Positions 31,445 through 46,823 of a stretch of DNA of 64,000 bases are shown in pieces; positions within the stretch are counted from its first letter, which is position 1, and the number at the start of each line of letters is the position of its first letter. The translations under genes were made by a program, and so were the position numbers. This DNA comes from Dictyostelium discoideum (taxonomy: Eukaryota): NCBI GenBank assembly GCA_000004695.1, contig CM000154.2, forward strand, positions 128,001 through 192,000, in the 5' to 3' direction. The notes beneath the pieces were generated by a model. The model ran no database searches, had not been told where the DNA came from, and was given only the letters and a program-made list of their open reading frames with translations.

Positions 31445-32052
31445 TTACTTTAACAATTGAATAGGTTTCATTTTATTTTTATCTAAAATATTAGGATCAG
31501 CACCAAATTGTAATAATAAATTAACTATTTCCATATTACCTTGTTGGTAAGCTTTATGAAGTGGTGTCATACCATCTGAATCTATTAAATCAACTTTGGT
31601 TATACCTTTTTTTAATAATAATTTTGTATTCTTTAAAAATAAAATAAAATAAAAAATTAATTTTTAATAAAAATAATAACAAAAAATAAAAATAAAAAAA
31701 AAACACAACTTACATTTATAGAATTACAAAAACATGATCTATGAAGAGGTGTTGCACCACCACTAGTTTGACAATTAATGTTTGCACCATTATCTAATAA
31801 CAATTGAACTATGTCATTATTTTTATCATTTCTAACTGCATAGTGCAATGGATAATAACCTGATGAATCCATAGTATTTGAAAGTGATGAATTTTTATAT
31901 AACAATTGTTCAACCTTTTTAAAATCTGAATTTATAATTGAACCCCATATTCCTCTTTCAAAATTTAATTCATCCAATGATTGTGTAACTGAGTCAACTT
32001 GAACATGATTACATTCGTGCCCATTACATTCATGATTATGATGTTTGTCCAT
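31445..32052 (-). CDS. Ankyrin-repeat protein, about 174 aa, 2 exons
   Basis: Exons complement(31714..32052) and complement(31445..31630), with a GTAAGT donor and a ttaaag acceptor. Ankyrin consensus is present in [89 protein letters not shown]. The N-terminus is His/Cys-rich ([12 protein letters not shown]). Confidence 0.65.
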
Positions 32053-32212
32053 CTGTTGTTTCTTTTTGTTTTTTTTATTATTTTTTTATTTTTTTATTTT
32101 TTCATTTTTTTTTCAATTCCCAAAAATAAATTTTTTATGACTTTAAAAAAAAAAAAAAATTTCCTTTTCATCTTCTTTTTTTTTTTTTTAACAATTATCC
32201 AATTTTATTTAT

Positions 32213-32620
32213 TTTTAATATGAATTTAGTATAGATAAATATAAAACTCTAAAATACACAAATCATATTAAAAATAATAAAAAAAAATAAATGTTACCAT
32301 TCTTTTTTTTTTTTTTGAATTTTTTTAACCAATTTAAAATTTTATTCTAAAAATAAACCAAATCAAATCAATTTTTTATTTTTTATTTTTTATTTTTTTT
32401 ATAAAAATCTATTTTTTTATATAAAATTTATTCCCTACTTGTTGTTCAAAATAAAAAAACAATTACAAAAAATGTGTGTTAAAAAATTAAATTTAAGATT
32501 CTAAAAAAAAAAAAAAAAAATTTTATAAAACATAATGATTACATTCATTTTTTTTATATTTTATATCATTTTGTGTATTTTTGAATGTTCTATTTATCTA
32601 TACTAAATTCATATTAAAAA
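32213..32620. mobile_element. MITE-like non-autonomous element: about 55-60-bp terminal inverted repeats flanking about 300 bp of non-coding AT-rich DNA
   Basis: The left end at 32213-32270 is the reverse complement of the right end at 32560-32620; the shared core is cattttgtgtatttttgaatgttctatttatctatactaaattcatattaaaaa. A third copy of the same end sequence occurs at 44445-44525. There is no ORF between the repeats. Possibly related to Dictyostelium thug/DDT-type small elements, but no family assignment is possible without a repeat library. Confidence 0.4.
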
Positions 32621-33055
32621 TAAATAAAATTGAATAATTGTTAAAAAAAAGAAAAACAAATAAAAAAAAAAAAAAAAAAAAAAGAAAAGTAAAATGAAAA
32701 AAAAATGAAAATATTTTTTTTTTTTATTTTTTTTTTTATTTTTTTTTTAATTTGCTCATTTGCAGAAATAAAAAAAAAAAAATATGCGATAATTTTTTTC
32801 ATTAAAAACATTATTAAAAAAAAAAAAGTAAAAATATATATATTTACAATTCTAAACATTTATTATATGTTATTAGAAATACTTAAATATGATGGATCCA
32901 TACGCAACAACTCATAGAAGATTGAAACAGATACAGTTTGTATTTTTAGTAAAAAAAAAAAAAAAAAAAAAAATAGAAAAAATTACAAAATCTATATATT
33001 AACATTTTTATTTTTATTCTTTTTAATTGTTTAAAACTACAATAGGGGTCATTTT

Positions 33056-33637
33056 ATGACACCACAATCATTAAGAGTACTACCACAATTTACATTAAAT
33101 TCATTAAATAATAAATCAAACATTTCTTCAATGTGGAGAAAATTAACAACTTCTTCTCGAGTATTTATTATTATTATTATTTAATATTTAATTTATAAAA
33201 AAAAAAATACATTATTTTTATTTTTTGGAAGTAATTATTAATATTTAATAATAATAATAAAATTAAAGATAGGAGCAGTATCAATACCACCATTAACAGC
33301 ATATTATATATTTAAATTATTTAAAGGAAAACATAGAAAATTTATAAATGATAAAGATATTGAAATTATTATAAAAGAGATCTCTGGTAATGATATATTT
33401 GATCAAGTTGTAAAATTAGCAAGTAAAGTCATTGGATTTTTGGGTGTAATTCAAATATCAAATAGAATGGAAACTCATTTAGGTGTAAAATTAACATTTT
33501 CAAAATCTTATCAATTATTAGTTACACTCTCTTCAATTTTAGATACAATTTTATCATTTACAAAATTAACTCAAAAGTTTGTATTTGAAATTAATAATAA
33601 AAAAAAAAAAAAAAAAAGAAAGGAAAAAAAATGTTAA
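33056..33637 (+). CDS. Hypothetical small protein with presequence-like N-terminus; tentative 2-exon model
   Basis: Exon 1 is 33056..33160 (MTPQSLRVLPQFTLNSLNNKSNISSMWRKLTTSSR; Arg/Ser/Thr-rich, mitochondrial-presequence-like) with a GTATTT donor. The acceptor aaag is at 33268. Exon 2 from 33269 encodes IGAVSIPPLTAYYIFKLFKGKHRKFINDKDIEIIIKEISGNDIFDQVVKLASKVIGFLGVIQISNRMETHLGVKLTFSK... and is in frame with the track ORF 33440..33637. The 3' end is uncertain and it may continue into the next ORF. Confidence 0.35.
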
Positions 33638-33738
33638 TTCTATTTTATTTTATTAACTAAAAATTATTTATTTATTATAAAAGATGGGGAATAATATTTT
33701 GTATAGTTAGTATTTTATATTGTATAATTAATATAAGA

Positions 33739-34182
33739 ATGTTATATTTAACATTGGCACATAATAAAACGGTTGAAAGATTATTATCAGTGACAAGAAC
33801 AAAATGTCAAGGATTTAAAATGAATATACCAGCATTGGGGGCATGGGGATCAGTAGTTGCAATTACATTTTACATTTGGTTAAAAGAAGCAAAGAAATTA
33901 GCACAATCTACAGGTGGTATTTTAACGATGACAGCTTTTCTTTTATCAGCAATCGCAGCGATTAGAGTTGGATTAAGAGCTGCAATGACATCTTTTCCAG
34001 GTTTAACACCTTTTGAAGGTAGTTCTGCAGTTGTAATCGCTATTATTTTAGGTGCATTACCATTAATACCTTATTATACAACTTCTGAATGGTCAAGAAC
34101 TCTATTATCAGGTTATTTATCAATTGTAATTTCAATGATAATTAATTCATTTTTTGCTTGGAAAACTCCTTCAATGCTTTAA
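33739..34182 (+). CDS. Hypothetical small 3-4-helix membrane protein, 147 aa
   Basis: ATG ORF with Ala/Gly-rich TM helices (ALGAWGSVVAITFYIW; GGILTMTAFLLSAIAAIRVGLRAAM; SAVVIAIILGALPLIPYY; LLSGYLSIVISMIINSFFAW). The frame stays open upstream to 33661, so it may be a 3' exon of the preceding gene. No family recognised. Confidence 0.35.
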   Translation: MLYLTLAHNKTVERLLSVTRTKCQGFKMNIPALGAWGSVVAITFYIWLKEAKKLAQSTGGILTMTAFLLSAIAAIRVGLRAAMTSFPGLTPFEGSSAVVIAIILGALPLIPYYTTSEWSRTLLSGYLSIVISMIINSFFAWKTPSML

Positions 34183-43686: not shown

Positions 43687-44097
43687 ATTATAAATGTCTG
43701 TTTTAATGTATCATTACATTTGGAGAAGAAGAAAAAAAAAAAATAAAAAAAAAAAATAAAAAAAATAAAAAAAATAAAAAAATAAAAAATTTCATCGTTG
43801 TGACAAAACATTACCTGTTCAAAAAAAAAAAAAAAATATTTTTTTTTTTTTTTTTTTTTGCGACACAATAAGTTTTCATTTTAAAAAATAAATAAAAAAA
43901 ATATTTTTAAATATCTAAAGATTCTAATCTCTTTTATTAGTTTTTTAAATTTTATTAGATAAACTAACACCAATGGTCAAACAAAATGTTTTTGCTGAAA
44001 TTAATAATGGTTTTTTCAAACTCATTCAGTTTTAACTTCGAATGGTTTAATCTATGGCGCAAAGTTTAGAAATGTTAATGACGATTTTCAAGTGAAA

Positions 44098-44266
44098 CAG
44101 GAATTTGAAAAAAACCACTTCCCAAAGTCGTATCAGGTGGCCAATTTTTATCAAGGAAAGCTGTATCATCAAGTGCCTCCCTCTGTCTCTTGATGATTCA
44201 GCCTTCCTTGACAAAAATTGCCCACCTGATACGACTGGGAAGTTGGTTTTTCAAATTCAATCTGTA
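44098..44266. repeat. Long near-perfect inverted repeat (about 78-bp arms, about 90% identical, 12-nt central spacer) forming a potential 170-nt hairpin, with a second 17-20-bp hairpin at 44285-44355
   Basis: The left arm is caggaatttgaaaaaaaccacttcccaaagtcgtatcaggtggccaatttttatcaaggaaagctgtatcatcaagtg. The reverse complement of the right arm is cagattgaatttgaaaaaccaacttcccagtcgtatcaggtgggcaatttttgtcaaggaaggctgaatcatcaaga. The loop is cctccctctgtc. The downstream perfect palindrome is atatattatatattcac...gtgaatatataatatat. The GC content is high relative to the surrounding intergenic DNA. It lies between the FDXR start at 43686 and the 3' end of the TPP1-like gene at 44540. Confidence 0.7.
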
Positions 44267-44539
44267 GAACAATTTCTTGATTGACGAAAGGCATATATTA
44301 TATATTCACCCAATATTTTGATTCTTCTCTGATCGAGTGAATATATAATATATAAATTTTAAAATAAAAAATATACTCACCCATCAAACCAATTTTTTTA
44401 TTTTTTTTTTTTTTTTTTTTCATATCTATTTTTTTTATTATAAATGTCATTTTTTGTATTTTTGTGTGCTCTATTTATCTATACTAAATTCATATTAAAA
44501 AAAATGAATGTAATCATTCTAGAATTGTTTTTTTATTTT

Positions 44540-44668
44540 TTATTTTTGTGATAAAATATAATTTTCCATATTTGAATATACAATACTACCTAACCCACTT
44601 GCAGGGTCAAAACCAGTTATAGCCTTATAACCAAATTCACAGCAATACATACGATTACAATTATTATT

Positions 44669-44702
<34 letters not shown>

Positions 44703-46823
44703 AAATTATATTTATAATTAGTACTATAATTAGAAATATAAAATATAATATAATAATTACCATTTATAATATCATTAAAAACATTTGGACTTTCTTCAGC
44801 AGCTTGGTATAATAAAGGATTTAAGAAACCTAATGTTGATTTTCCAGAATTTAATAATTTATCATTTATTAATGAAAACATTGCAGCAATTGATGGTGAT
44901 GAGCATGATGTACCATCAACTGATATAGTTATACAAGGGCATAAATTCGATGAAACATTATTAGATTGTACAATTGAGTATTTAGAACCAGCAAGTGAAA
45001 TATCAGGATATGCACGATTTGATGAATTAAAACTGAATGATGGGGGTAATGAGGATGGTTGTTGCTCGAGATACCTATTTACAGCATTAGTTTGATATTG
45101 TGGTTGAGATTGTGTAACTGAAAAACCACCACCAGATGTAATGATTGAACCTGACTGAATTGAACAAACTGATTCAGGTTGTGGTGATTCATAAATTTCA
45201 GTTGCACCTACTGATGTAACATAGGGTGAACTTGCAGGGAATTCTGGGTTGAAGACAGGTCCATTTGATGGATCAAAACTGTATCCAACCATTTTAAAAC
45301 CTTCACCTGATACTGGAGTTAAATCTTCACATAAACATGAAGAATAAATATGTGTATAACCAAACACATCAAACTCATATTGAAAATCACAATGAGCATT
45401 AACTTGTTGGAAAGTACCCAATGCATCAATTACCTCTGGAACAATGATTAATTCTCTACATGCAATACCCATTTGGTTGACTGGATAAAAACAGTTTGGT
45501 GATTCTGTAAAATTTGAATTTACAATTGTAATAGTTGCACAATTGGTAGTTGTGTGCTCACAACCACCAAATGGACAATAACCATTGATACCATCTACTG
45601 GACAATTACCAAACACATCAAAAAATCCAGGGGAACCATCGTCACCTGAACTTACGAATATTGAAGTACCACGTAACCCAATTTTTTGAAATTCAACATT
45701 AGTTCTCTCAATGTAAACCGTAGAATCCACACCAAGATTATTACAATCTTGTGTGATTTCACATTGTTCCATTTCAATCCACCCATAGGAAATCGAAGCT
45801 ACATTTGGAATTGGATCAAATGCTTGAATCGATGTACACCAATCCAATACCCATTCACCACTACCCGATTCAAGAAACATTGTTGTAATATTATTACCAA
45901 TGGCAGTCATATACTGAACATCTAAATCCGATTCAAGTTGTCCACAACCTTGTTCATAACAAAGTGGACTTCCAGCATTTAAAACTCTAACATTTTCAAT
46001 TGAAAATTGTTGATCAAATGTTTCCAATGCACCAGTACTATAATAATCTGAAAAAGCACCTATTGATTGAACATTCTTTGAATTTGTACCAATAGTATCA
46101 TTTGGAATACCATAATAATCTTTCAATACTTGAGGTGAAATTGACAACTGTTTTGAAATACCAACAATATCATCTCTTGATTTTCTCATAGTCTCACTCA
46201 TTTTATTATCTTCAATAAAATCTGATAAACCCAAAACCAAATCAATTTTATTTAAAACATTTATTGGGATTGATGCATCACCAATAATTCTAATTCTTTC
46301 TTTATTTGAAATTTCTGATTTATAAATTCCAAAATTTGTTTTAAATAAATTTGATGCTTTTAAAATATTAATTCTAATTTTAATATAATCTGAAAAAACA
46401 ATCATTTCACTTTTATTAATTTTATTATCAAATAACCAATTTAAAATAATTTCAACATCTTTTTTTGAAGGTGAAATAATTGAATCAATCTCTTTTGAAC
46501 TTAAAAATTTTCCATAATTTAAACTTTTTGGATTTGAAATATCCCAAAATTTTTCTTTTAAAATATTTAAATTATTCTTTTTTTTTTTTTATATATTAGT
46601 ACCTATTTATTTTTTATTTTTTTTTTTTTTAAATAAAACTCACTTGTTTGATTAAAATTTTAAATTCTATTATTTCATTTTCATTTGGTAAACTTTTAAA
46701 ATTAAAGTATGAAGGTGGATTTCTAATATTTGCAATAGTTTCACGTTTTAAACCATCACCACTATTCTCTTTTGCATTTGCAAATAAAATAATAACTAAT
46801 AATATGATTAACTTTAAAATCAT
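44540..46823 (-). CDS. Sedolisin/tripeptidyl-peptidase I-like serine peptidase (MEROPS S53) with signal peptide and pro-domain, about 708 aa, 3 exons
   Basis: Exons complement(46644..46823) (MILKLIILLVIILFANA signal plus start of pro-domain, GTGAGT donor), complement(44761..46576) and complement(44540..44670), with GTAATT donor and aaaaag acceptor. The catalytic-Ser motif SGTSCSSPSIAAMFSLINDKLLNSGKSTLGFLNPLLY corresponds to GTSAAAP...LGFLNPxLY of TPP1. The C-terminal ...CCEFGYKAITGFDPASGLG corresponds to the TPP1 GWDPVTGLG. The pro-domain has the typical KFWDISNPKSLNYGKFLSSKEI pattern. Dictyostelium carries several tpp1 paralogs and I cannot say which this is. Confidence 0.75.

Follow-up and report, generated by a model that had tools for sequence, protein, structure and literature searches.

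The window analysed here is a 64-kb stretch of the genome of Dictyostelium discoideum AX4, with a G+C content of 17-31%; judging by the offset of the published ddi-mir-1176 locus, it most likely covers positions 128001-192000 of chromosome 5. In this window an ankyrin-repeat gene and the gene DDB_G0287441 form a divergent pair, and the 836-bp spacer between them contains an inverted repeat, away from which both genes are transcribed. A third, partial copy of the repeat lies 12 kb away, in the primary transcript of the microRNA mir-1176. The features of the divergent locus are as follows.

31445-32052, minus strand: ankyrin-repeat gene, two exons, ATG at 32052-32050 (from ORFs and sequence)
32139-32713, no strand: palindromic non-coding insertion of about 575 bp, its ends placed to within a few nucleotides inside A/T runs (from a multi-genome alignment and raw outgroup sequences)
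32165-32346, minus strand: left arm, in which the repeated unit reads towards the ankyrin gene (from local alignment)
32347-32484, no strand: central spacer, 138 nt, with inner halves at z = 0.2 against shuffled sequences
32485-32667, plus strand: right arm, in which the unit reads towards DDB_G0287441 (from local alignment)
32526-32600, plus strand: conserved block of the right arm, 75 nt, comprising the B' motif AATGATTACATTCATTTTTTTT and the 5' half of the core
32534-32556, plus strand: B' motif AATGATTACATTCATTTTTTTTA, whose exact reverse complement closes the third copy (23 of 23 positions, 44496-44518)
32889-34182, plus strand: DDB_G0287441, several exons, encoding an uncharacterised transmembrane protein of 322 aa (from a cluster look-up)

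The earlier note placed the repeat immediately 5' of the ankyrin gene. This is correct, as the gene, whose ATG is at 32052, lies on the minus strand; the repeat is equally 5' of DDB_G0287441. The latter gene begins with an ATG at 32889, and its last exon is a 147-aa ORF at 33739-34182. Gene calls orthologous to the ankyrin gene have Pfam Ank matches. The spliced model of the ankyrin protein had no match, and the ORF overlapping the inverted repeat no record, in the protein collection searched. Among the homologue searches, one returned only matches from D. purpureum and EukProt and another a paralogue. A Logan contig with exon 1 of the ankyrin gene ends 40 bp upstream of the ATG. Two other ORFs of the window are exact matches to the AX4 proteins DDB_G0287319 and DDB_G0287323.

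The inverted repeat and its copies in the window

The repeat has a 31-mer core, CTATTTATCTATACTAAATTCATATTAAAAA, which occurs at 32590-32620 and 44471-44501 on the plus strand and, with one mismatch, at 32212-32242 on the minus strand. None of 100 dinucleotide-preserving shuffles gave a match to this core. The length of the arms depends on the method. A repeat search yielded ungapped arms of 125 nt with 82% identity, and blastn an ungapped block of 87 nt with 93% identity (32176-32262 against 32570-32656). Gapped local alignment extended the arms to about 182 nt (32165-32346 against 32485-32667, z = 19 versus shuffles), with the centre of symmetry near 32416. Outward or inward of these arms similarity is not significant in comparison with shuffles, and the central spacer is palindromic only at the level of low-complexity similarity. 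The symmetry as such reaches both ends of the 575-bp insertion; its outermost elements, an A15 run at 32145-32159 and a T-run starting at 32714, are partly native in the outgroups. In each arm the unit reads outward, and its limits are AATGATT...AATCATT.

A profile built from the arms (nhmmer) matched exactly three sites in the 64-kb window, with E-values from 1e-17 to 1e-24; the match in the right arm spans 32526-32645 (E = 1.9e-24). Applied to eight related loci of about 21 kb each, some 170 kb in total, the same profile detected no further copy. Exact scans with a 24-mer of the core gave nothing in metagenome, prokaryote-genome and viral collections, all of which are without Dictyostelium, and a full-text literature search with the core sequence returned nothing relevant.

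These results bear on several claims of the earlier note. The inverted repeat and its third copy are real and not a product of chance (0 of 100 shuffles; z = 19 for the arms). The note also named the circumstance that would undo its proposal, namely that the similarity is nothing but AT-rich low-complexity sequence. The repeat region does have only about 18% G+C and many A/T runs. Nevertheless, such an explanation has practically no chance of being right: it is ruled out by the shuffles of the 31-mer, by the arm score and by nhmmer E-values of 1e-17 to 1e-24 at these sites alone. The absence of an ORF between the arms was confirmed, as none of at least 40 aa lies wholly inside. A 54-mer reported in both orientations is indeed found in both, but it starts at 32567 rather than 32560, and its reverse-complement copy matches at about 89% and is not exact. 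The proposed 55-bp terminal inverted repeats turned out to be merely the best-preserved part of arms of about 182 nt within an end-to-end palindrome of about 575 bp.

Insertion history and evolution of the two arms

We compared the locus with seven related genomes: L003, L004, L008, L009, D. citrinum, D. dimigraforme and D. firmibasis. Orthologous loci were found by a cluster look-up of the 147-aa ORF of the last exon and were fetched with 10-kb flanks. In an alignment of about 4.2 kb, the neighbor-joining tree is ((((AX4,(L003,L004)),L009),L008),(D. citrinum, D. dimigraforme)), D. firmibasis. In this alignment AX4 diverges from L003 and L004 by 2.8-2.9%. For the other genomes it gives 3.8% (L009), 5.4% (L008), about 11% (D. 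citrinum and D. dimigraforme) and 15.5% (D. firmibasis).

The insertion is present in all five genomes of the D. discoideum complex (AX4, L003, L004, L008 and L009), in one of them with a single arm. L003, L004 and L008 have both arms. In L009 the right-arm unit alone is present; an A-run/TTTTA repeat marks its junction with the ankyrin side, and 3.6 kb of unrelated DNA is also found there. The repeat is absent from D. citrinum, D. dimigraforme and D. firmibasis, whose two genes, likewise divergent, are separated by only about 225-275 bp. D. purpureum has the two genes in tandem and has no copy of the repeat either. In the multi-genome alignment the extra DNA of AX4 lies at about 32139-32713 inside an oligo(dT) tract, and the proximal 175 bp or so upstream of DDB_G0287441 (32714-32888) are kept in all species, as the alignment and conservation tests indicate. 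The insertion is flanked by ...AAATTTTTTAT on the left and TTTTTTTTTTTT... on the right. Both ends fall in A/T runs, where no target-site duplication is readable.

Judging by this distribution, the palindrome is a derived insertion. It arose once D. citrinum and D. dimigraforme had branched off, yet before the lineages of the D. discoideum complex separated, and it has been fixed at one orthologous site ever since. L008, which has two arms, branches outside AX4, L003, L004 and L009, so the palindrome is ancestral to the complex. The single arm of L009 is therefore a secondary deletion, because L009 nests inside the two-armed clade; for the same reason the single unit of L009 is ruled out as an ancestral intermediate. 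The idea that the repeat is a footprint of an inversion of the ankyrin gene relative to D. purpureum is also ruled out, since the genes are already divergent in species without the repeat.

The two arms have evolved differently. Between AX4 and L003 the mismatch rate is 7.9% of aligned sites in intergenic and 2.9% in genic sequence; between AX4 and L008 the corresponding values are 13.6% and 5.0%. The arms compare with these rates as follows.

Right arm versus L003, 32526-32628: 2 mismatches in 103 nt, P = 0.010 against the intergenic rate
Right arm versus L008, 32526-32600: 4 mismatches in 75 nt, P = 0.019 against the intergenic rate
Left arm versus L003, 32187-32307: 20 mismatches in 111 nt, P = 0.0004 against the intergenic rate
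Left arm versus L008, 32187-32307: 30 mismatches in 110 nt, P = 0.0001

By these counts the right arm is about as conserved as coding sequence and the left arm is unusually diverged and fast-evolving. The block 32526-32600 is nearly invariant across the five genomes. The right arm, which faces DDB_G0287441, is thus under purifying selection. It may have been co-opted as a putative upstream regulatory module of this gene, as conservation at P of about 0.01-0.02 suggests. The left arm, which faces the ankyrin gene, is decaying, and one lineage (L009) has lost it by deletion. Fixed differences between left and right that are common to AX4 and L003/L004 indicate that the two arms predate the split of these genomes. 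In their outer 55 nt or so, however, the arms of AX4 differ from each other at one base, while each is different from its orthologues in L003, L008 and L009. Such near-identity within AX4 is the mark of an exchange between the arms by gene conversion, which in the lineage of AX4 has patched the left arm.

The third copy within pri-mir-1176

The second locus includes a known transcript and two segments specific to AX4.

43860-44528, plus strand: pri-mir-1176, known transcript, starting at a G after 21 Ts (from primers, RACE and the mature sequence)
43883-44317, plus strand: AX4 segment of 435 bp with the mir-1176 hairpin, absent from L003 and L004 (from alignment)
44350-44512, plus strand: AX4 segment of 163 bp with the third copy, absent from L003 and L004 (from alignment)
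44428-44518, plus strand: third copy, a partial unit with the core and the B motif, at +288 to +378 of pri-mir-1176

The published ddi-mir-1176 locus is NC_007091.3:172131..172231. Its primary transcript was described as capped and 669 nt long, starting at a G after 21 Ts, with mir-5p beginning 281 nt downstream (PMC6161686). According to the same work it has a distinct non-polyadenylated end at +388, 12 nt ahead of the stop codon of the opposite-strand gene, and minor ends at +341 to +373. The window matches this description with the transcription start at 43860, the end at 44528, the opposite-strand stop codon at 44540 and the minor ends at 44481-44513. The mature 5p sequence of ddi-mir-1176, CCAAUUUUUAUCAAGGAAAGC, is at 44141-44161, and the primers F1023, F1022 and F1050, used for the 3' RACE of pri-mir-1176 (Liao et al. 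2018), match the window. The mir-1176 hairpin occupies 44101-44258 with arms that are 82% complementary; it is richer in G+C and adjoins the third copy.

The third copy aligns with the right arm over 44428-44508 (32547-32628 in the arm) with about 88% identity, and a 55-nt stretch of it (44447-44501) is 92.7% identical to the right arm. At diagnostic sites it is also of the right-arm type. The reverse-complement motif that had been noticed next to it is exact over 23 nt (44496-44518 against 32534-32556), though its coordinates had been given about 5 nt off. What does not hold is the description of this copy as a recurring end motif of the element, because it is an internal piece of one arm and has neither the inner nor the outer arm end.

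The third copy is the last 100 nt or so of pri-mir-1176. Published RACE data place the mapped 3' ends of this transcript within or just after the core and B motif of the copy, and the unit may supply its 3'-end-forming signal. The three copies could also be regarded as genes for a small structured non-coding RNA, a divergent pair and a single one, given that a DUSE-like sequence, ACCCATCAA, lies about 60 nt upstream of the third copy and that the right arm is conserved. This is highly improbable. The third copy is inside a mapped Pol II transcript, and the arms have no DUSE-like motif at the corresponding position. A search of Rfam 15 at the gathering score was negative for the whole window, and within 32000-32900 it was negative even up to E = 1. 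Folding compared with shuffles is unremarkable for the third copy (z = -0.27) and for the right arm (z = -0.25), and only the left arm of AX4 performs better.

The mir-1176 hairpin and the third copy are missing together from two genomes of the complex. The orthologous intergenic region of L003 and L004, between an adrenodoxin-reductase-like and a sedolisin-like gene, is about 260 bp long, compared with 854 bp in AX4, and only a 32-nt island is kept there between the 435-bp and 163-bp segments. The last 6 nt of the inverted 23-mer (ATCATT) are also found at the empty site of L003. The 5' part of the 163-bp segment resembles the spacer of the repeat (44383-44435 against 32362-32418, 82% in blastn). 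Another inverted duplication of the AX4-specific region is a 17-bp stem at 44292-44353.

The mir-1176 module and the third copy may have been gained in the lineage of AX4 or lost in L003 and L004. The outgroup loci covered here extend to just short of this region, and the internal evidence points in both directions. In favor of an old module that was lost in L003 and L004, divergence between the hairpin arms is 18%, and the copy has 8 differences from the right arm in the first 47 aligned positions. Alternatively, the copy may have been subject to recent copying, conversion or constraint, since no difference from the right arm occurs in the 35 nt that follow or in the 23-nt B motif.

The unit at the end of a genuine pri-miRNA suggests one more reading, in which the inverted repeat itself is a hairpin-RNA locus (a proto-miRNA or siRNA source) related to the mir-1176 module through the shared 3' unit of about 100 bp. 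A read-through RNA of the palindrome has a predicted fold of -113.9 kcal/mol (z = -11.9). [quoted passage not shown] We consider this reading improbable nonetheless. A transcript started at the inward T-runs would hold one arm only, and conservation of a single arm differs from what is expected for a selected stem. The supplement of the 2024 survey has no miRNA or candidate cluster at chr5:160,1xx-160,6xx, and the 2018 supplement has no matching small RNA.

Origin of the palindrome and of its copy

The feature is real: a palindromic non-coding insertion, specific to one lineage, that sits in a bidirectional promoter. As to its source, we tentatively favor a MITE/foldback-like origin of the palindrome, with somewhat less than even confidence. 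Such an origin is plausible in view of the inverted arms, the absence of an ORF and the empty sites in relatives; a duplication by repair is nearly as likely. The palindrome has terminal inverted repeats (arms of about 182 nt, z = 19), it is small and non-coding (about 575 bp, no ORF of at least 40 aa inside), and there are empty orthologous sites (three sister species for the palindrome, L003 and L004 for the third copy). A perfect terminal inverted repeat of 22-23 nt can be reconstructed from the 5' end of the right arm and the 3' end of the third copy. In one of two readings, the 163-bp segment looks like a diverged collinear copy of a MITE-like unit of about 117 bp with the ends AATGATTACATTCATTTTTTTT and AAAAAAAATGAATGTAATCATT. 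The arms would then have a degenerate 3' end (...AAATAAATAAAATTAAATCATT in L009) and the third copy a perfect one.

The comparison with MITEs and foldback transposons has two sides. The palindrome resembles them in its small size, non-coding content, inverted arms, AT-rich promoter site and empty sites in sister species, as well as in the apparent co-option of one arm and the embedding of a copy in a miRNA transcript. MITE-derived miRNAs have been described in plants. Unlike these elements, the palindrome has no readable target-site duplication, its extra copy is an internal fragment, and it has occupied a single site for a long time. It is also known from three copies, without a demonstrated multi-copy family or a known autonomous partner. 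In published work on miRNAs the mir-1176 locus is taken to be unique intergenic DNA and not repeat-derived, which makes a large repeat family unlikely. The MITE-like designation of the earlier note is partly supported. It stands as regards the discrete non-coding insertion, the long inverted arms, the three empty sites and the presence or absence of the third copy, but not in the details of arm length and ends corrected above. Against it stand the ends in A/T runs, the negative profile search for further copies in the window and the related loci, and the long fixation at one site with a constrained right arm. The label captures the form and the insertion history of the palindrome. [quoted passage not shown]

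Under the favored mobile-element origin, a palindromic foldback-type DNA of about 575 bp would have inserted into the oligo(dT) tract of the short promoter that serves the ankyrin gene and DDB_G0287441 in both directions. It may have come from a low-copy MITE/foldback-like element or have been a copy of such a unit. The palindrome would then have stayed at one site, its arms exchanging sequence by gene conversion. The right arm may have been selected and co-opted for DDB_G0287441, with the left arm left to decay. A partial copy of the unit of about 100 bp lies 12 kb away, at the 3' terminus of pri-mir-1176, a capped transcript of Pol II. A mobile unit would be a low-copy MITE/foldback element new to the catalogue of a genome whose repeats count as well described, and a concrete case of an element built into both a bidirectional promoter and a miRNA primary transcript. 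Whatever its origin, the non-polyadenylated 3'-end region of pri-mir-1176 belongs to a repeat, another copy of which is conserved upstream of DDB_G0287441. Apart from this and from the turnover of the mir-1176 module, the feature is an ordinary structural variant in AT-rich intergenic DNA.

The main competing explanation is a non-mobile palindrome that arose within the oligo(dT) tract through error-prone repair of a double-strand break or of replication, by template switching or fold-back synthesis. We regard it as a serious possibility, if a somewhat less probable one. Here the third copy would be either a later templated filler taken from the locus 12 kb away or an old duplicate deleted in L003 and L004. 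As in events of the MMBIR/FoSTeS type, the palindrome runs end to end around a short unique centre, and its outermost symmetric A15 and T-run include sequence native to the outgroups. The segment with the third copy likewise looks like a patchwork with microhomology at the junctions. It can be read as three patches, 32362-32418, 32547-32620 and the inverted 32556-32534, that join at short shared sequences (TAAAAA; TC(T)ATTTTTTT), and the last of them extends by a 6-nt overlap, ATCATT, into flanking sequence that is native in L003. Small inverted duplications cluster in the AX4-specific segment, with the mir-1176 hairpin and the 17-bp stem at 44292-44353 as two further cases, and no other family member was found in the 64-kb window or in the 170 kb or so of related loci. 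However, MMBIR/FoSTeS-type events normally copy local sequence, whereas the unit has no visible progenitor at the outgroup locus, so that the first event would still need an ectopic template. The 8 differences in 47 nt of the third copy followed by a perfect stretch are at odds both with a clean copy of recent date and with one that is old throughout, and hairpin arms that are only 82% complementary argue against a recent repair origin of the mir-1176 module.

Returning to the mobile-element origin, a stronger version of it can be envisaged, in which the unit of about 100 bp belongs to a few related mobile modules that form hairpins and give rise to new non-coding transcription units in D. discoideum. 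Such a family would supply the non-polyadenylated 3' signal of pri-mir-1176, a proto-miRNA hairpin and the co-opted element in the promoter. [quoted passage not shown] A partial parallel is thug-S, a DNA-transposon family of D. discoideum that carries miRNA loci, as in both cases repeated DNA contributes to a miRNA transcript. In contrast to the situation here, in which the repeat is the 3' tail of a single-copy pri-miRNA, the miRNAs of thug-S are multi-copy and lie within the element (thug-S was compared by its description only).

The absence of the mir-1176 module from L003 and L004 agrees with the published gain and loss of dictyostelid miRNA 'modules' (PMC11014262). In the manner of the group 4 modules (Edelbroek et al. 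2024, PMC11014262), the hairpin and the third copy are missing together from a shortened intergenic region, and the same pattern was reported between D. discoideum and D. firmibasis (PMC11014262). Unlike in those cases, the difference found here is among genomes that are all labelled D. discoideum and are about 3.6% diverged, which means turnover of a miRNA module at the level of the species complex. The locus also differs from the published modules in that its unit of about 100 bp is shared with a second lineage-specific insertion 12 kb away.

The ddi-mir-1176 gene and its module

ddi-mir-1176 is a known gene. Its T21-G start site and +388 end, its mature sequence and the RACE primers published for it could all be placed exactly in the window, which gives the following features:

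43860-44528, + strand, ddi-mir-1176 gene
44101-44258, + strand, mir-1176 hairpin
44141-44161, + strand, mature 5p sequence

Rfam holds no family for mir-1176, and the matches obtained there were limited to generic miRNA hairpins below threshold. The mir-1176 module (43883-44317 and 44350-44512) is wholly missing, in comparison with AX4, from L003:19960-20444 and L004:19900-20444. These two genomes (GCA_054859385.1 and GCA_054859355.1) are labelled D. discoideum and diverge from AX4 by ~3.6%. A 32-nt island, 44318-44349, is the sole part of the module region that they keep.

One further inverted repeat was observed here:

44292-44353, 17-bp stem with arms CATATATTATATATTCAC ... GTGAATATATAATATAT

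It reaches from the last part of the 435-bp AX4-specific segment across the retained island into the beginning of the 163-bp segment, and is a further small inverted duplication at the module junctions.

Surroundings of copy 3

The partial repeat unit in the tail of pri-mir-1176 (copy 3) faces a convergent gene:

44540-46405, - strand, ORF of a sedolisin-like gene

Only 12 nt separate the end of pri-mir-1176 from the stop codon of this gene (region 44428-44542). Because of this spacing, the predicted 3' UTR of the sedolisin-like gene must overlap copy 3 in antisense. In AX4 the two genes may thus form a natural sense/antisense pair, which is impossible at copy 3 in L003 or L004.

The motif ACCCATCAA lies at 44381-44389, ~60 nt upstream of copy 3, and differs by one base from the Dictyostelium upstream sequence element consensus. 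Its position matches the +243/+248 processing ends reported in drnB- cells. The likeness and placement of this motif are probably a coincidence.

The ankyrin/DDB_G0287441 locus

The ankyrin gene stands in tandem with the DDB_G0287441 orthologue in D. purpureum (L001:8270-10447), on one strand with ~360 bp between them, whereas the two genes are divergent in D. discoideum (31445-34182), D. citrinum, D. dimigraforme and D. firmibasis. The inversion of the ankyrin gene therefore predates the palindrome.

DDB_G0287441 (32889-34182) is annotated as a single 322-aa protein in AX4 and the latter three species, and as two genes of 205-210 and 147 aa in L003 and L004 (L003:9063-10444); its D. purpureum counterpart is likewise split, into 165 and 148 aa (L001:9225-10447). 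Conserved sequence at the exon junction suggests that the single-gene model is correct.

In D. cf. discoideum (GCA_054859205.1, L009:6250-9870) ~3.6 kb separates the remaining repeat unit from the DDB_G0287441 promoter, and this stretch contains two predicted genes, one for a 242-aa product and the other for a Ser/Pro-rich repeat protein of 238 aa. The intergenic site is a repeated target of structural change.

The B motif is the 23-mer shared by copy 3 and the palindrome; its core (GAATGTAATCAT / ATGAATGTAAT) occurs twice more within the opening codons of the ankyrin gene:

32005-32016 and 32023-32033, - strand, B motif core repeats

Their significance in a 1-kb search is borderline (E = 0.04-0.17), and they could have arisen by chance or be remnants of a common origin.
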